From contig JANRKO010000023.1 of assembly GCA_033763455.1 (NCBI GenBank), positions 96,001 through 160,000 of the forward strand: 64,000 nucleotides of DNA, written 5' to 3'. Position 1 is the stretch's first letter. Each line of letters begins with the position of its first letter. Positions 25,403 to 31,814 of the stretch are shown here, one piece after another. Position numbers and translations under genes: made by a program. The notes beneath the pieces were generated by a model. The model did no database searches. It was not told the DNA's origin and saw only the letters and a list, made by a program, of their open reading frames with translations. This stretch comes from Polyangiaceae bacterium (lineage in GTDB: Bacteria > Myxococcota_A > Polyangia > Polyangiales > Polyangiaceae).

Positions 25403-26662
25403 ATGTCGGCAGCCATGAACGCTCTTCCGACCTCCGAAACGCGCACGAGCTTTCCGAAGAACAAGATCAAGGTCCTGCTCCTGGAGAACATTCATCCTAG
25501 CGCCCAAGCGCTCATTGAAGGCGATGGCCTGGAATGCGAGATGCGGAGCGCCGCGCTCGGAGAAGCGGAACTCATCGAAGCGCTGAATGACGTGCACATC
25601 CTCGGGATCCGCAGCAAGACTCAGGTGAGCAAGAAGGCTCTTGAGAGCGCTCGCCGCTTGCTCGCTGTCGGCTGTTTTTGCATTGGAACGAACCAGGTGG
25701 ATCTTGAGGCCGCCAAGCGACGCGGTATCGCGGTCTTCAACGCACCCTTTAGCAATACGCGCAGCGTCGCAGAGCTTGTGATGGGGGAGGTAATAGCTCT
25801 TTCCCGTCGGCTCGGCGACCGTTCGGGTGAGATGCACGCAGGGAAATGGAACAAGACCGCTAGCGGCTCCTTCGAGGTACGCGGCAAGACAATTGGCATT
25901 GTTGGGTATGGGCACATTGGCCGCCAAGTTGGTGTGTTGGCGGAAACGTTCGGGTTGAGCGTATTGTTTTACGACATCTCGCAGCAGCTCCCGATGGGTA
26001 ACAACCGCACTGTCGGTACACTCGACGAACTGCTCGAAAAGTCGGACTTTGTGACCCTCCACGTGCCGGCCACGCCGCTCACCAAAATGATGATAGGGCC
26101 CGAGCAGATCGCTAAGATGAAACGCGGCGCATGCCTCCTCAACCTGAGCCGGGGCAGTGTGGTTCAGATCGACGCGCTGGCGGCAGGCTTGCGTTCGAAA
26201 CACTTGGCGGGTGCCGCGATCGACGTATTTCCCGTAGAGCCAAAGAGCAATAACGATCCCTTTGAGTCCGAATTGCGCGGGTTGCCTAATGTCATCCTGA
26301 CGCCCCACGTCGGCGGCTCAACCCAAGAGGCACAGGAAGCGATTGGGCGCGAAGTGGCCAACGCTCTGTTGCGCTACCTCAACGAAGGGTCCACAGCCTC
26401 GGCGGTAAACATTCCCCAGGTAGAGCCGCCTCCGCTCTCGGGGAGACACCGCATCTTGAATCTGCACGCCAATGTCCCGGGCGTTCTTAGCAAGATCAAC
26501 AGTATTGTGGGTCAGACCAAGGCCAACGTGGAAAGCCAGATCCTGCAAACCGATCCCGACGTGGGGTATTTGGTGATGGACCTGAACCAAAGCGTTTCAG
26601 ACGAGGTGAAGGACCAAGTGGCGGCTCTCGACGCGAACATACGCACGCGCATCCTCTACTAG
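25403..26662 (+). CDS. serA: D-3-phosphoglycerate dehydrogenase (with ACT domain)
   Basis: GIRSKT, FCIGTNQV, NAPFSNTRSVAEL, GYGHIG, TPHVGGST, and ACT H.NVPGVL. Confidence 0.96.
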   Translation: MSAAMNALPTSETRTSFPKNKIKVLLLENIHPSAQALIEGDGLECEMRSAALGEAELIEALNDVHILGIRSKTQVSKKALESARRLLAVGCFCIGTNQVDLEAAKRRGIAVFNAPFSNTRSVAELVMGEVIALSRRLGDRSGEMHAGKWNKTASGSFEVRGKTIGIVGYGHIGRQVGVLAETFGLSVLFYDISQQLPMGNNRTVGTLDELLEKSDFVTLHVPATPLTKMMIGPEQIAKMKRGACLLNLSRGSVVQIDALAAGLRSKHLAGAAIDVFPVEPKSNNDPFESELRGLPNVILTPHVGGSTQEAQEAIGREVANALLRYLNEGSTASAVNIPQVEPPPLSGRHRILNLHANVPGVLSKINSIVGQTKANVESQILQTDPDVGYLVMDLNQSVSDEVKDQVAALDANIRTRILY

Positions 26663-26779
26663 AACGCTGCGTGGGGGCGCCCTTGGCACTCTCGATGCGA
26701 GGATCGCCTACGCCTTTTGCCGTGTGCGCCAGGGGCGAACGGCCCCTTCAAGAGAGCACTGCCAAGCTGCGCTCCTAAC

Positions 26780-27562
26780 CTAGCTCGAGAAGTAGGCGTC
26801 TACGGCGAGCTGGACGTCGCGTTGAACAACCGTCTTGCGCTCGTCTTTGGCCGCATTTCGGATGCTTTCGGTCGCGATACGTCGGAGATGTGCCGAAAGC
26901 GGGGCCAGGATCCCATCGGAGGTGCTCAAACCATGTGCCACCTTGACGTACTCCTTTAACTTGCTCACCACCAAGAGTACTTCTTGGGGTATCCCCGCTT
27001 CGTCAGCATCCTTGTGAAGCACCTCGCTACGGCGTGGTTTTACGACGGGCACCATGTCGCGATCGAGGAGCGTCTTTCTGCCATCGCTCTTGCTGAGCAC
27101 CACTGCCCGATTGAGCACCTCGCGCACGTGATCACTTAAGGTAGCAAACACGGCGTCGGCTACCCGCATCTGGGATTTTGCCGCAATGTAGTCCTTGAAG
27201 CGTTGCACCACGATAAGCGTGTCGCGAGGCCCTTTGCGTATACCTGCTTGCGCATCCATCTTCGCAGCTAACACTTCGGGATTAGTTGCTTTCTTGTGTT
27301 CTTCCTTTTGATCCATCCGGGCGCGCTCCTGCCCCATCTCGGCACGCCAAGCTTGCTGAGTTGGGCTGGTATCTTTAACGGCCCAGCCGTCGCGATGGTT
27401 GGCCTCTTCCCGATGTGCTTCCCAGCACGGCAAGGAACAGAAAACAAGAAATGTCCGCTTTCTATTGCACGTGGAAACGCTGCACCGAAAATGAGGTCCC
27501 TGAAATCCAACGGGTAACCTGCAACTGCTACAGGTGCGCCATGTTTCGGTGGAAAGCGTCAT
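26780..27562 (-). CDS. Bacterial histone: N-terminal Cys/His zinc finger plus two tandem histone folds (ZZ-histone type)
   Basis: Candidate zinc ligands C11,C14,C27,C32,C42,C46,H50,H56. Two mutually similar ~57-aa folds (aa 114-170, 194-250) end in RKTLLDRD and RKTVVQRD, the histone R-x6-D clamp. Confidence 0.88.
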   Translation of the reverse strand: MTLSTETWRTCSSCRLPVGFQGPHFRCSVSTCNRKRTFLVFCSLPCWEAHREEANHRDGWAVKDTSPTQQAWRAEMGQERARMDQKEEHKKATNPEVLAAKMDAQAGIRKGPRDTLIVVQRFKDYIAAKSQMRVADAVFATLSDHVREVLNRAVVLSKSDGRKTLLDRDMVPVVKPRRSEVLHKDADEAGIPQEVLLVVSKLKEYVKVAHGLSTSDGILAPLSAHLRRIATESIRNAAKDERKTVVQRDVQLAVDAYFSS

Positions 27563-27604
27563 AGATGATGAGCTCTGGCAACCAAGCTTCTTTACATCGA
27601 GGGG

Positions 27605-28072
27605 CTAATTCTCCGACTCTTGGATAGAAGACGCCTCAGGATTGCCCTTTTTTCCCTTCCCACGGCCGCCACCGCTCGGTTTTTTGGGAGCCACCTTTTC
27701 GTCCGTGGGGGCCTCGCCAATCTGCAGCTCGCATTCGCCGAAGACCACTTGGCTTTTGCCCGCCTCACCCGCGAGGCGAACCTCCAGCGTTTTGGCCTTT
27801 ACCACGGTGTTGTCGCGCACAGCTCCTCCGAGCCGAATTGTGTCGGCCTCCAGATCACCAGAAACCTCACCTTCGGACTCGAGTGAGGTGACCCGAACCT
27901 TGCCGTGAACTGCGCCAGTTGAACTAACGCGCAGCGCGGGAGCCGAAAGCTCACCTTCGATCCGACCATGCGCCAAGATGTCCACCTTGGAATTGAGCTT
28001 GCCTGAGAACTCGCTGCCCGCTTCGACAATGGTTTGTCGAACTTGAGTTGAGGTTCCGTTTTCGTCATTCAT
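27605..28072 (-). CDS. Bactofilin (polymer-forming cytoskeletal protein)
   Basis: TIVEAGSEFSGKL...ILAHGRIEGEL....LRVSSTGAVHGKV...GEVSGDL beta-helix pattern, basic C-terminal tail, GAAGGAG RBS. Confidence 0.82.
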   Translation of the reverse strand: MNDENGTSTQVRQTIVEAGSEFSGKLNSKVDILAHGRIEGELSAPALRVSSTGAVHGKVRVTSLESEGEVSGDLEADTIRLGGAVRDNTVVKAKTLEVRLAGEAGKSQVVFGECELQIGEAPTDEKVAPKKPSGGGRGKGKKGNPEASSIQESEN

Positions 28073-28088
28073 GATTGCAATCTCCTTC

Positions 28089-29312
28089 TCAAGTTTGGGG
28101 GCGCAAAATCTTCACGCGTAGGCGGCAGCCGGGCTGAAAAGCAAATGCGGTAGGCTCCGGACCCTGCGCGATGGTGCCTACGAGCGCTCCCTTGGAGCTC
28201 ACTACGAGCGTGCGAGGACCAGAGATGCCCGGGCTTTCGCGTTCGAAGAATTTTCCGTGAATCGTGATGTTACCACCACCGGTGATCACGCATTCGCTGA
28301 GGACACCGGATTCGCCGACCACCAGATCGGTCCCATCTCCCAAGGAAATACTGCACTTTTCGAAGCGGCTGTCGATCTCCACGGCGGAGCCTTCACCGAA
28401 CTCCAGGGTCGCGTCGCGCAAAACGTCCCCCTCGCCGAAGTAGCGCGTTGCCGCAGCTCCTGGAGCTAGCTTGCCTGAAAGGAACGCCTCCACGTCTTCG
28501 CCGGAAATGCGCTTGGTGCCGTCCCCGCCACGGCTCCCATCCAACCACTCAGCAACCACGCCCTCAAAGTTGGCATCTTTGGTCGCCGTACCAAAGAGCT
28601 TGGCCCCCGTGATCGTGGCCGACAAGAGATTTGCGGTCCCGAGCTCGGCGTGTCTGAGGTCAGCACCCGTGAAGTTCGCTTGTTTGAAGACCCCCTTGCC
28701 GAGGCGAGCGTTTAAGAGCCCGGTGTTCGTAAAGTTGGCGCCCGGAGCCTGAGCCTCCTCAAGGTTGGCATCAGTGAGTGTTGCGGAAGAAAAATCGGCT
28801 TCCTCAAGATTGGCCGAAGAGAGATCGGCATTGCTGAGATCCGCCGAACGAAGCTTCGCGCCGCCGAGGTACGCTTCACCGAGCTCCGCATGCGTGAGGT
28901 TGGCGTTCGAGAGGTTGGCCTTACCGAGCTCAGCCGAAGCTAATTGGGCGCCGGAAAGCCGTGCTCCGACAAGATCTGCCTCGGCGAGGTTCGCTCCCTC
29001 AAGGGTAGCGCGATCAAGGTTCGCACCACGCAAATTGGCTTGCGTGAGGTTGGCGCCTTCAAAATCAGCCTTGCCTAAATCAGCGTCCGACAAATCGGCC
29101 AGCTTGAGGAATGCCTCCCGCAAGCTGGCGTTTCGGAGGCTTGCCCCGCGAAGCTTGGCCCCTTCGAGGTTGGCTCCGTCGAGATCAGCCCGTTTCAGAT
29201 CCGCTCCTTCAAGCGGCGCACCCGATAAGTCGAGACCCGCCAAATCGCAGCGCGCCAAGGGCTGCTTATTGCGGACGCGTTCGATCACTTCATCTCTTGA
29301 ATATTCCGCCAT
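28089..29312 (-). CDS. Pentapeptide-repeat protein with C-terminal bactofilin-like beta-helix
   Basis: About 47 uninterrupted LxxA(D/N) pentapeptides (aa ~19-253). C-terminus LVVGESGVL...ITIHGKF...LVVSSKGALVGTI. Confidence 0.88.
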   Translation of the reverse strand: MAEYSRDEVIERVRNKQPLARCDLAGLDLSGAPLEGADLKRADLDGANLEGAKLRGASLRNASLREAFLKLADLSDADLGKADFEGANLTQANLRGANLDRATLEGANLAEADLVGARLSGAQLASAELGKANLSNANLTHAELGEAYLGGAKLRSADLSNADLSSANLEEADFSSATLTDANLEEAQAPGANFTNTGLLNARLGKGVFKQANFTGADLRHAELGTANLLSATITGAKLFGTATKDANFEGVVAEWLDGSRGGDGTKRISGEDVEAFLSGKLAPGAAATRYFGEGDVLRDATLEFGEGSAVEIDSRFEKCSISLGDGTDLVVGESGVLSECVITGGGNITIHGKFFERESPGISGPRTLVVSSKGALVGTIAQGPEPTAFAFQPGCRLRVKILRPQT

Positions 29313-29331
29313 CGTCTATCTCGCCTCAGAC

Positions 29332-30636
29332 TTAAAGTTCGCGTTTATCGGTTTTGCTACGTTCCAGAAACTTCTCGAGCTCTTCCAACTTCCGTCCAAA
29401 TGGAAAACGCTCAAGGCGTGTGAGCAGGGCTGCTTCGCCCAACCTGGCCAGCACTACCTGAATTTCGAGCCAGCTATCGGTGCGGGCCTGGCGCAACTTC
29501 CGCTTCTCTTTAGAAACGTTGCGCGTCCAGTTGCGGCCCTGATCGTCAATTGCCTGATTGTGCCGCCGCAGCTTGCTCATAAGTTGCTCAAGCTGCGTGT
29601 ATTCAGCCTTTCGCGTCGGCTCGGGGATAATGGAGGCCGCGCGCCGCCGGTAACGCTCGAAGCGTTCGACGATTAGCCCACAAAGCTCTAGAGATAAGCC
29701 GGTAGTAGCGGCGATGTCCTCAGCTTTGGCGTCATAGAACATCTTGAGCTGGGTCAACCCAACCGCGTAAATCTTGTCGAGCTGCACCTTGTTTACGCCG
29801 GGCACCTGCCGGAGCACACTGTCAACGATGATGGGATCTCTTCGCCCGCTTTCTCGTTCGACGGAGAAGGCCTCGGGCAGTACCTTTGCCAGCTCCTGAT
29901 GGCAGTTCAAAAGCTGCGTGCGAGCTTCCTCCTCCAGCATGGCGCCACGGCCCTTTTGTGCTTGAAGCAGCTCTACAGAGAGAACTTCAAGCGGCCCCAC
30001 TAAATCCGAAAGCCCGAGCTTCTTCGCCGCTTCCAGCAACGAATTCACGGCCGGAGAGCAGATACGGATCCACTCTCGGCGAGCTTCACCGATCGTGAGC
30101 TCCACCATGAAATCGCGAAACGGGCCCAAGTGCTCCGCTGCTAGGTGAGCAAACAAGACTTCTACCTGCTGGCGATCCTGAGGCATCCCGGCAATGCCAT
30201 CACCCGACCCTGAAATTGCTTCAAAGTGCGGCTCAATGTCGTCGAAGCCTTTGTCGATCTCCGCGGAGGTAACGCGAGCCGGTGGCTGCGAAGCCCCGTT
30301 GGCAGCCGCGTCTGGTCTCGAAGTTGCATCCTGCACGCGACGAGCGCTGGGGGCGGGCGGAGCTGAAACTCTTGGCGGCGCGGCCACCGGAGCGATGGGC
30401 TCCGCTACTGCAGCCGAAGGCACTGCGCCTGGCGGTGGGGCCGAGGAGGGCGCCCAGGACGACATCGAGTGCTGCGCTTCAAGCGCCTGTTGATCCAGCG
30501 GCTGCGTATGCGCTCGCTGGTGAGGAGTGGCGGGAGCGCCGCCCGAAAGCGCCAATCCACACTTGACGCAAAACCTCGCGGTTAGCGGGCAAGTTGCCGA
30601 GCACTTGGGGCACTGTTGGGTATCTTCCATGGTCAT
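29332..30636 (-). CDS. Zinc-ribbon / Pro-rich linker / helical bundle / helix-hairpin-helix protein
   Basis: CPKC..RFCVKCG ribbon immediately after ATG 30636/30630, LRQVPGVNKVQLDKIYAVGL HhH, and C-terminal coiled coil. The ORF-track extension to 31026 is implausible. Confidence 0.8.
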   Translation of the reverse strand: MTMEDTQQCPKCSATCPLTARFCVKCGLALSGGAPATPHQRAHTQPLDQQALEAQHSMSSWAPSSAPPPGAVPSAAVAEPIAPVAAPPRVSAPPAPSARRVQDATSRPDAAANGASQPPARVTSAEIDKGFDDIEPHFEAISGSGDGIAGMPQDRQQVEVLFAHLAAEHLGPFRDFMVELTIGEARREWIRICSPAVNSLLEAAKKLGLSDLVGPLEVLSVELLQAQKGRGAMLEEEARTQLLNCHQELAKVLPEAFSVERESGRRDPIIVDSVLRQVPGVNKVQLDKIYAVGLTQLKMFYDAKAEDIAATTGLSLELCGLIVERFERYRRRAASIIPEPTRKAEYTQLEQLMSKLRRHNQAIDDQGRNWTRNVSKEKRKLRQARTDSWLEIQVVLARLGEAALLTRLERFPFGRKLEELEKFLERSKTDKREL

Positions 30637-30863
30637 TTCGCGGTGTGTTCGCCTGTTTGCTTCGGGGACGGCATGCCTTCCGTGAATGACTTGGAAGCAT
30701 AGTCCTTCCAATGGTCGCGCGTCTTCCCTGAACGGAGGGCGAGTAGGAGAAATCGCAGCTCTTCCCACGTTTGCGGAATTCGGCCCGACGTAATGGGCCC
30801 GCTGCGGATTCCCCGGTGTCTCCCAATTGACTCCCCCCACGAGCAGGCCAAACTCCCCACCAC

Positions 30864-31814
30864 GTGAATTCACCCTGCCTGTCGAGCACCGAAATAGCAG
30901 CCGGCAGCGCCAAGCTCGCCAATCTGAAGCTCGGTAGTAGCAGGCTCGCGCTCGGTACTGCAGGCCTCGGAGGGATTTGGCGGGGAAGTGATACCCATCA
31001 ATCGGTGGACGCGCTCCTCTATGCACTGGAGCACGGCCTCAACGTCTGGGACACGGCACCTGCGTATGGCGAAGCCGAAGCCTTGATCGGGAGCGCTCTC
31101 AAACAGTGGCACGGGCCGCTACCAGTTATCAGCACTAAGATCGGGCGCACACATGCCAACGCGCCGACGAGCGTCTCTTATCGGCCAGACACACTACGCG
31201 ATACATTGTCAAAAAGCCTCGACCGGCTTCACGTAGATTCTGTAGATCTGCTCTTCCTCCATGAGCCGGAGAAGCTTCTACCTGAGCAGCGCGGGCCCGC
31301 GTTGGACACGCTACTCGCCATGCAAAGTGAGGGCCTCACACGTTTGGTTGGGCTCGGCGGTGGCTGGGGTAGAGCTTGGGATTTCTTCTTGGACTCGGGA
31401 GCCATCTCCGCGGCAATCGTCTTTCTATCGCTTGATGCGTGCTGCCTCGATTCCGTCCCAAACGACGTACCTAAGCTCCAATCAAAGGGCGTCGCGATCT
31501 ATGGCGGCAGCCCTTTGCATATGGGTCTTCTAGCCTCTGCAAAGCCAAAGACCGCCCCTTGGGCGACGCCTCAGGCCCTGCTTGGCCTCAAAGGGTTGCA
31601 GATACTCTCGCACGAGCTGAACCAGAGCGTGATCGAGCTCGCTCATCGTTTCGTGTATTCCTTGCGCTGCATCGATCGTGTGCTTATCGGGCCAAGGAAC
31701 CTCGAAGAACTCAAATCTTCCTTGCAGGACTTCAGCAAGGGCGCTCTACCTCCGAACATATTTCACCAAATCTACGACCCAGCGCTAAAGCGCGCGGCGC
31801 CGAGAAATATCTAA
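30864..31814 (+). CDS. Aldo/keto reductase (sugar dehydrogenase-like)
   Basis: LALGTAGLGG, WDTAPAYG, ISTKIG, SLDRL..DLLFLHEP, VLIGPRN. Confidence 0.88.
   Translation: MNSPCLSSTEIAAGSAKLANLKLGSSRLALGTAGLGGIWRGSDTHQSVDALLYALEHGLNVWDTAPAYGEAEALIGSALKQWHGPLPVISTKIGRTHANAPTSVSYRPDTLRDTLSKSLDRLHVDSVDLLFLHEPEKLLPEQRGPALDTLLAMQSEGLTRLVGLGGGWGRAWDFFLDSGAISAAIVFLSLDACCLDSVPNDVPKLQSKGVAIYGGSPLHMGLLASAKPKTAPWATPQALLGLKGLQILSHELNQSVIELAHRFVYSLRCIDRVLIGPRNLEELKSSLQDFSKGALPPNIFHQIYDPALKRAAPRNI

Follow-up and report, generated by a model that had tools for sequence, protein, structure and literature searches.

A 64,000-nucleotide stretch of the genome of a Polyangiaceae bacterium (contig JANRKO010000023.1 of assembly GCA_033763455.1; hereafter the window) carries on its reverse strand, at positions 26780..27562, a gene whose open reading frame (ORF) runs uninterrupted from an ATG start codon through 260 amino acids to the stop. 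In the encoded protein, a Cys6His2 zinc finger is joined through a helical linker to two histone folds that are homologous to each other, all within a single chain. A preliminary description of this DNA had placed two repeats and a finger here, and its repeat segments agree with the translation to within one codon. Bacterial histones have only recently been recognized, and the ZZ histones, the branch to which this protein belongs, are, in the literature found, a catalogued, experimentally untouched class. As the protein is homologous to ZZ histones but has two histone domains, it is filed here as a variant of them: a pseudodimeric ZZ histone, a new architectural variant, with a seemingly undescribed layout, of a known family.

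Domain Architecture and Sequence Relationships

The ZZ-like binuclear zinc finger occupies the N-terminal region (residues 5-66; 27365..27550, on the reverse strand like every feature of the gene), as delimited by ligand conservation and a domain model. In the translation its eight ligands, C11, C14, C27, C32, C42, C46, H50 and H56, span nucleotides 27395-27532, exactly where a Cys6His2 finger ahead of the folds had been reported. It is followed by a charged helical linker (residues 69-104; 27251..27358), in which DSSP assigns helices at 69-92 and 95-104, the predicted local distance difference test (pLDDT) ranges from 73 to 97 by block, and length and sequence vary in the alignment of relatives. 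Histone fold 1 (residues 112-175; 27038..27229), the divergent copy, is defined by a BLASTP repeat, a fold hidden Markov model (HMM) and the structural model; its repeat segment, D114 to D169 in the translation, lies at about 27056-27223. The inter-fold linker (residues 176-191; 26990..27037) shows lower pLDDT, with blocks of 82 and 67, and measures about 21 amino acids when counted between HMM envelopes. Histone fold 2 (residues 192-260; 26783..26989), whose repeat segment runs from E194 to D249 (about 26816-26983), is by phmmer, superposition and contact residues the conservative copy, resembling the Bdellovibrio histone HBb (Bd0055).

The two halves are homologous and share an RKTxxxxD clamp, as first noticed in the preliminary description. 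Compared directly by BLASTP, half against half, they are identical at 18 of 59 residues (E 1e-12), and the family histone-fold HMM matches them at E 8e-24 and 1e-26. The RxTxxxxD motif occurs in both, as RKTLLDRD at residue 162 and RKTVVQRD at residue 242, and provides the clamp residues R162-K-T164...R168-D169 of fold 1 and R242-K-T244...R248-D249 of fold 2. A word-indexed search of a 90%-cluster database returns 119 homologs at E ≤ 1e-3 (143-455 amino acids; best E 1e-116), and R162, T164, R168 and D169 of fold 1 are invariant throughout these and in the 14 doublets among them.

Pfam PF00808 (CBFD_NFYB_HMF) matches the protein with 26.5 bits, above its cut-off of 21.4 (E 8e-6; two stretches at a max_evalue of 1), and 48 of the 119 family members match it at E ≤ 0.1. 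The NCBIfam model archaea_histone gives the query protein 30.5 bits, under its cut-off of 50. Annotation pipelines had been expected to miss the identity of such proteins, and relatives are indeed named 'hypothetical protein' (NCBI) or 'histone H3/H4' (JGI). By phmmer, the best sequence match in the PDB is HBb, for fold 2 (8cmp_A, E 1.3e-4; 8fvx_A, E 1.7e-4); superposition (below) likewise makes Bd0055/HBb the nearest solved relative, in keeping with the likeness to Bd0055-type histones suggested from the sequence.

The Zinc Finger

The ligand pattern Cx2C-x12-Cx4C-x9-Cx3C-x3-Hx5H is strictly kept: all eight ligands are invariant in 14 of 14 doublets, 119 of 119 homologs and 81 of 81 sequences of a finger-only alignment composed of 80 species loci and the window protein. 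ZZ histones are described as having an N-terminal finger with a C4 and a C2H2 zinc site, exemplified by D0LYE7 of Haliangium ochraceum (Schwab et al., 2024; PMC11390915), and seven of the eight ligand positions listed there for D0LYE7 coincide with the present ligands at a constant offset of 9. By analogy with that published pattern, C11, C14, C42 and C46 would form the C4 site and C27, C32, H50 and H56 the C2H2 site. The legend to Fig. 4 of the same paper gives the third cysteine pair as CxC (C51/C53 of D0LYE7), whereas it is Cx3C in 81 of 81 sequences here (PMC11390915).

Modeled alone, the finger reaches a pLDDT of 94.1. ZZ domains lead the Foldseek list for the isolated finger weakly (E 0.048-0.3; template modeling (TM) score 0.39-0.56), the first 13 rows listed, at E 0.048-0.23, all being ZZ domains of p62 or HERC2. 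VIA-align gives them similarly weak scores of Z 4.0-4.9, with a top Z of 4.9, and its 25 best matches include the ZZ domains of Rsc8, Nbr1, Ada2, ZZZ3, p62, HERC2, BIG, p300 and CPEB1. The Pfam ZZ profile (PF00569) finds no match in the query at E ≤ 1, and a profile of the finger alignment meets only chance-level matches in the PDB, with E at least 0.54. Because the fold scores are weak and Pfam ZZ is not matched, 'ZZ-like' is the best available label for the predicted fold of the finger, and membership among ZZ domains is not demonstrated. The finger had nonetheless been assigned to the ZZ-histone class, and this placement is upheld by the shared ligand order (PMC11390915, in the text available) and by ZZ domains ranking first, if weakly, in its structural comparisons.

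The finger is basic, with a mean net charge of +3.3 over the 81 sequences and +3 in the window protein. Its most conserved stretch outside the ligands is the loop CSVSTCNRKR (59-81 of 81 per position), and H52-R53, in domain-alignment numbering, are invariant in the finger alignment. The preliminary description had suggested that the finger may act as a reader or interaction domain. The pocket residues of eukaryotic ZZ domains are reported not to be conserved in ZZ histones (Schwab et al., 2024; PMC11390915, in the text available).

Elsewhere in the same order, in families f22 and f7, many matches cover the finger only (query residues about 5-75), often with an in-frame stop codon. These may be ZZ-like fingers without a recognizable histone fold, or degraded genes.

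Predicted Structure

The AlphaFold2 model, built on the 119-sequence alignment, has a mean pLDDT of 90.8 and a predicted TM score (pTM) of 0.72, and consists of a small beta-rich finger, a long charged helix and two fold units. In fold 1, DSSP assigns α1 to residues 119-130, loop 1 (L1) to 133-134, α2 to 138-159, loop 2 (L2) to 164-165 and a short α3 to 167-174; in fold 2, α1 spans 199-210, L1 213-214, α2 216-239, L2 244-245 and α3 247-259. The model therefore shows the helix-strand-helix-strand-helix order of the histone fold twice, once in each repeat. In the model the two folds pair antiparallel as a handshake within one chain, a reading of the model that follows from the colinear alignment of solved single-chain doublets across both units.

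Structural comparison with VIA-align, exhaustive over 48,161 PDB representative chains, gives a list headed by single-chain histone doublets, natural or engineered, each colinear over both units. The best is HMk of Methanopyrus (1f1e_A; Z 10.7, root-mean-square deviation (rmsd) 2.9, 129 aligned residues, model residues 114-260), followed by an H2A-H2B fusion (8uqe_B; Z 9.8), the Melbournevirus doublet (7n8n_D; Z 9.8), Thermus DUF1931 (1wwi_A; Z 9.4) and the SOS histone domain (1q9c_A; Z 9.2). Foldseek at E ≤ 1e-3 returns two matches only, 9cvt_D and 1f1e. An intramolecular pair of histone folds had been proposed, with AlphaFold and Foldseek named as the check, and this is what the confident model contains: both halves pack as a pseudodimer, the handshake fold is present, and the Foldseek matches are histone doublets. 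Fold 2 superposes on Bdellovibrio HBb (9ezz_B, 8fvx, 8cmp_A) with an rmsd of 0.7-1.0 Å over 57-58 residues at 33-35% identity. A complex prediction for two copies of residues 105-260 scored 0.01, without controls, and is uninformative either way on oligomerization.

DNA-Contact Residues

The DNA-contact and clamp residues given for HBb are T8, S9, K10, K12, K16, N22, T23, S24, D49, R51, K52, T53, R57 and D58. A histone DNA site combines L1 of one fold with L2 of the other, as established for HBb and HMfB, and HBb contacts the DNA backbone only (PMC11317129, in the text available). These residues were mapped through the phmmer alignment with HBb, and family counts were taken over 28 non-identical doublets with long inter-fold linkers.

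In the window protein, fold 2 is identical to HBb at 12 of the 14 positions and fold 1 at 7. Within α1 and loop 1, where eight of the contacts lie (T8-S24), fold 2 keeps six and fold 1 a single one plus a change of K10 to R; loop 1 of fold 1 reads V-A instead of T-S, and its K16 is A. Across the 28 doublets, T23 is present in every fold 2 and in 18 of the fold 1 sequences, S24 in 26 and 20, respectively, and K16 (as K or R) in 28 and 16. The clamp is kept on both sides, with K52 (as K or R) in 27 of 28 fold 2 and all 28 fold 1 sequences, and R51, T53, R57 and D58 in 25-28 of the former and all 28 of the latter. The window protein has the lowest identity between its own folds of the 28, at 0.30. 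Since its fold 1 has lost the Thr-Ser pair of L1 and the α1 lysine, one L1-L2 site is predicted to be weaker and the other intact, so that residue conservation would make the protein an asymmetric DNA binder.

Distribution and Copy Number

In the data searched, the doublet is a sub-clade of the ZZ histones confined to a handful of genera within a single myxobacterial family. About 100 of the 119 homologs have 148-231 amino acids and cover roughly 65% of the query, corresponding to the finger and one fold, while 14, with 242-268 amino acids, 93-100% coverage and two RKT motifs, are doublets. A fifteenth homolog of doublet type, P0004, is a finger-less piece of 178 amino acids, 96% identical, on another contig. 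Singlet ZZ histones match the query at E 1e-41 to 1e-23. An exhaustive search of a 50%-representative library yields 510 matches at E ≤ 1e-3, and among 347 collected proteins the fold HMM assigns two domains to 44, a single domain to 261 and no domain to 42. The phylum-level home of the relatives is Myxococcota/Bdellovibrionota, as for ZZ histones.

With each species represented by one genome, a relative is encoded in 346 of 372 candidate stretches, and statements about species loci rest on the best 80 of these 346. Doublets account for 11 of those 80 (L001-L010, L018); all 11 are titled as metagenome-assembled genomes, of Polyangiales, Polyangiaceae, 'delta proteobacterium' or Myxococcota. 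Of 301 genomes sampled evenly from the window's order, 71 matched, a tally that includes the unpublished G147 with a finger-only match. Full-length doublets are present in eight of the 71 (G000, G003, G012, G022, G217, G239, G290 and G304), all from the window's family and from genera g1, g10 and g20; a second genome search adds G001 (g1) and G017 (g15), for four genera of the family in all. The family's remaining genera carry singlets or give no match at all; among its 90 other genomes, 34 matched.

Every doublet genome has one match apiece in both genome searches, and the doublet thus stands in place of a singlet, not beside one. In the window's own genome (93.67% complete), a search with fold 2 detects no second histone-fold gene; this query was used instead of PF00808, which proved too insensitive there, failing to recover the window gene itself. 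The exact protein is absent from a 15-billion collection. Among public sequencing runs, the best DNA datasets, both sediment metagenomes, contain fractions of 0.50 and 0.47 of the words sampled, and no RNA run is listed.

Two observations concern gene length. Singlet ZZ histones of 210-238 amino acids occur at L017, L023, L027, L029, L030 and L057, with a long low-complexity linker rich in Pro, Ala and Glu. As they owe their length to this linker, doublets are not identifiable by length alone. P0273, an NCBI-sourced entry in the cluster of P0003, the closest species relative, has 224 amino acids as opposed to 260 in other sources. It lies on a contig of 94,776 bp, a length shared with the contig of L001. 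It is probably a start-codon miscall and fits a start at the internal Met37 of P0003, which would drop four of the eight zinc ligands. Gene callers can damage such genes, and in the P0273 call part of the finger has probably been lost.

Evolution of the Two Folds

Before tree building, doublets were split by inter-fold linker into short (8-12 amino acids) and long (16-22 amino acids), with the cut at 15. The fold tree (233 rows, 60 columns; IQ-TREE quick, LG+G4) leaves most forks unresolved, and its rows are related sequences, not independent ones. Fold 1 of 26 of the 28 long-linker doublets nevertheless forms one clade (98 by the Shimodaira-Hasegawa-like approximate likelihood-ratio test, SH-aLRT), with one long-branched short-linker sequence inside it. 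For fold 2, 27 of 28 fall in a weakly supported group (82) together with 19 singlets, of which those with named origins are from Polyangiaceae or Myxococcales. In a 106-row tree the fold-1 and fold-2 labels need 3 and 4 changes, against about 25 in shuffles. An approximately unbiased (AU) test on the same 106-row set does not reject a single clade of all 28 fold-1 sequences (p 0.319). The data thus agree with a single duplication in the ancestor of the long-linker doublets but do not prove it.

Short-linker doublets are scattered in the fold tree, which suggests that they arose separately. In P0234 and P0180, the protein's own two folds are sisters (98 and 99), pointing to separate, recent duplications. 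P0156, P0176, P0180 and P0234 (148-165 amino acids) are tandem histone-fold doublets without a zinc finger as called; P0156, P0180 and P0234 sit on contigs of 9.7-26.8 kb, and all three are above the PF00808 cut-off.

Genomic Context

The histone gene is the last of four genes on the same strand separated by gaps of 16-42 nucleotides. Upstream of it by 42 nucleotides lies a bactofilin gene (27605..28072, reverse strand; 155 amino acids; PF04519, 45.8 bits), with which it is possibly co-transcribed, then, after 16 nucleotides, a gene for a pentapeptide-repeat protein (28089..29312, reverse strand; 407 amino acids; PF00805, E 2e-54) and an ORF resembling zinc-ribbon and helix-hairpin-helix proteins (29332-31026, reverse strand; 564 amino acids), with matches under the Pfam cut-offs. 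Downstream are a convergent SerA-like dehydrogenase gene and a glycoside hydrolase family 78 (GH78) rhamnosidase gene. The four-gene cluster recurs only in the same genus (L001/L086; L002/L087 end at a contig edge) and was not found beside the other 78 species loci or the loci of other relatives (E ≤ 1e-5/1e-3). An operon or partner as a family-wide functional link is rejected on this genus-limited synteny, so no functional link is drawn from the neighbors.

A scan of 26500-31300 limited to sigma-70-like promoters gave 0 sites. The 117-nucleotide spacer between the convergent histone and SerA-like genes (26663-26779) contains a short GC-rich hairpin (GGGGC, 4-nucleotide loop, GCCCC) with no T-run, which does not appear in the terminator-scan list.

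Proposed Function and Alternative Readings

The gene would belong to the ZZ-histone branch of bacterial α3 histones with its single fold tandemly duplicated, and we consider it likely that the product is a single-chain equivalent of the HBb dimer that binds DNA. Because both folds pair within one chain in the model, the monomer would present the whole dimer-type DNA surface, for which HBb or a singlet ZZ histone needs to homodimerize. This surface would comprise two L1-L2 loop pairs and the α1 N-termini and, by homology with HBb, would contact backbone phosphates at minor grooves, irrespective of sequence, and bend the DNA. On this analogy the protein is most likely a monomeric, asymmetric, non-specific DNA-bending protein. 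Fusion would fix the stoichiometry at one finger per histone dimer-equivalent and would free the copies to diverge, fold 2 keeping the HBb contact set and fold 1 the L2 RKT/R-D clamp. The finger, presumably cross-braced around two zinc ions (Cys4 plus Cys2His2), would most likely serve as a tether, either to a partner or to nucleic acid.

Several points weigh against this reading. The pseudodimer rests on a predicted model, and the literature found contains no experiment on any ZZ histone. Divergence between the folds is modest family-wide: mean pairwise identity is 0.517 for fold 1 versus 0.563 for fold 2, fold 2 has the better HMM score in 20 of the 28 long-linker doublets, and these 28 are related, not independent. 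For the finger, structural similarity is weak (Z ≤ 4.9; Foldseek E of at least 0.048, TM score 0.44-0.55), and at E ≤ 0.1 none of the 119 family members matches Pfam ZZ. Very low expression, both as transcript and as protein, is reported for the Bdellovibrio ZZ histone (Schwab et al., 2024; PMC11390915, in the text available), and the window's genome also has three genes of the HU/IHF family; the two together argue against a bulk packaging role and favor a specialized one.

A more far-reaching evolutionary account is advanced tentatively, as possible rather than probable. The protein would be the first single-chain pseudodimer described in the DNA-binding α3 branch, derived from a homodimeric ZZ histone that was duplicated in place in a Polyangiaceae ancestor, is now the sole copy, and is subfunctionalizing into an obligate 'heterodimer' with a strong and a weak DNA site and one basic finger. 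In this account one fold would have retained the original DNA contacts and the other would have lost those of loop 1 and helix 1. Similar fusions would have been repeated independently in the family, as the existence of short-linker and finger-less doublets suggests. If true, this would be a bacterial parallel to the step from homodimeric histones to asymmetric pairs of the H2A-H2B kind.

A specialized role can also be taken further, with the pseudodimer binding DNA as a low-abundance factor for partner recruitment, for particular loci or for cell-cycle or developmental stages, and with the ZZ finger giving the specificity. That the Bdellovibrio ZZ histone is reported to be scarce as transcript and protein alike (PMC11390915, in the text available) speaks for it, as do the HU/IHF genes and the report that Bd3044 cannot readily compensate for loss of Bd0055 (Hocher, 2023; PMC10627809, in the text available). 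The patchy occurrence of these histones, with matches in 34 of 90 further Polyangiaceae genomes and in 71 of 301 from the order, and the position of the gene 42 nucleotides behind a bactofilin gene in a same-strand cluster agree with it too. However, the synteny with the bactofilin and pentapeptide-repeat genes holds only within the genus, and the backbone-only contacts of the HBb type offer no obvious specificity; we regard this alternative as somewhat unlikely.

For the finger, a role as a nucleic-acid-binding module that extends the histone footprint, instead of a reader of N-terminal peptides like eukaryotic ZZ domains, would agree with its basic charge, the conserved polar and basic loop, the invariant H52-R53, the missing Pfam ZZ match and the reported lack of conservation of the eukaryotic pocket residues (PMC11390915, in the text available). 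Its best fold matches (p62, HERC2, ZZZ3, Nbr1) are nevertheless all peptide-binding ZZ domains, and charge alone is weak evidence, which leaves such a role on the doubtful side.

A non-DNA-binding scaffold of histone folds, comparable to the DUF1931 pseudodimers, would share the single-chain architecture (1wwi_A, Z 9.4; 1r4v_A, Z 7.1) and has a weak phmmer match to a DUF1931 chain (9qt0_A, E 0.094). DUF1931 proteins, however, are reported without the DNA-binding signature residues (PMC12701072, in the text available), whereas the window protein keeps the RKT and R-D clamp in both folds as well as α1 lysines; PF09123 is not matched by the query and by only one of the 119 members (E 0.044), and the nearest sequences are HBb and the ZZ histones. 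This makes the scaffold reading very improbable. An artifact, in which two adjacent singlet genes or a mis-assembly are read as one ORF, found no support beyond the absence of the exact protein from the 15-billion collection. It is effectively refuted by the intact frame with one finger only per protein, by the 28 non-identical long-linker doublets from different assemblies, by the occurrence of doublets in four genera of the family, and by the 96%-identical copy P0004 on another contig.

Comparison with Known Histones and ZZ Domains

Experimental work on bacterial histones has dealt with HBb and the Leptospira FtF histones (PMC10627809, PMC12701072 and PMC11317129, in the text available). ZZ histones are described as combining a ZZ domain with a single histone domain of the bacterial-dimer type (Schwab et al., 2024; PMC11390915), and Bd3044, which on combining the two sources would be the Bdellovibrio ZZ histone, is termed a singlet (Hocher, 2023; PMC10627809). 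The preliminary description had equated the finger-plus-doublet layout with the reported ZZ-histone/Bd3044 class; the available text of both papers contradicts this, with one histone domain in the former and a singlet in the latter. In three text-searchable supplements of Schwab et al. (2024), figures being outside that search, the words 'doublet', 'pseudodimer' and 'tandem' have zero occurrences, while the data file carries the category label 'ZZ histone' 528 times, and in the 10 of 13 supplement files of Hocher (2023) that were searched, the sole 'Polyangi' row of Table S1 is a singlet of 173 amino acids. The pseudodimers named in the available text of PMC12701072 are of the DUF1931 and archaeal nucleosomal types only, and literature searches found no paper describing a ZZ or α3 histone doublet.

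With the ZZ histones, the window protein shares a Cys4 plus Cys2His2 finger in the same ligand order, a variable linker and an HBb-like fold with RxTxxxxD. It differs in that their one described fold must homodimerize, while it has a tandem pair. With the ratio set at one finger per dimer-equivalent, the range of models for the finger's role is narrowed.

The resemblance to HBb/Bd0055 (PDB 8cmp, 8fvx, 9ezz and 9f0e) lies in the superposition of fold 2, the 12 of 14 contact and clamp residues and the short α3. HBb, which is highly expressed and appears essential (PMC11390915, PMC10627809 and PMC12701072, in the text available), is a finger-less singlet homodimer of 60-odd residues, in contrast to one chain with two diverged folds and a finger. 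A natural single-chain version would be a convenient experimental handle: a defined monomer, with no dimerization equilibrium, whose halves can be mutated separately.

Eukaryotic ZZ domains (p62/SQSTM1, HERC2, ZZZ3, p300, Nbr1, Ada2 and Rsc8) are the best fold matches of the finger and have the cross-brace, two-zinc topology predicted for it. They are set apart by the weak scores, the lack of a Pfam ZZ match, the basic character of the window's finger and pocket residues that are reported not to be conserved in ZZ histones (PMC11390915, in the text available).

The known single-chain doublets, namely HMk (1f1e), Melbournevirus (7n8n/9cvt), SOS (1q9c) and DUF1931 (1wwi/1r4v), have the two-fold pseudodimer that is predicted here and are the top matches over model residues of about 112-260. 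Their identity to the window protein in structural alignments is only 9-20%, and no matched chain aligns to the finger, all matches beginning at model residue 106 or later. As these doublets belong to the nucleosomal or DUF1931 lineages, the duplication seen here would be independent of them, and the ZZ-histone doublets would offer a natural experiment on how histone homodimers turn into asymmetric pairs.

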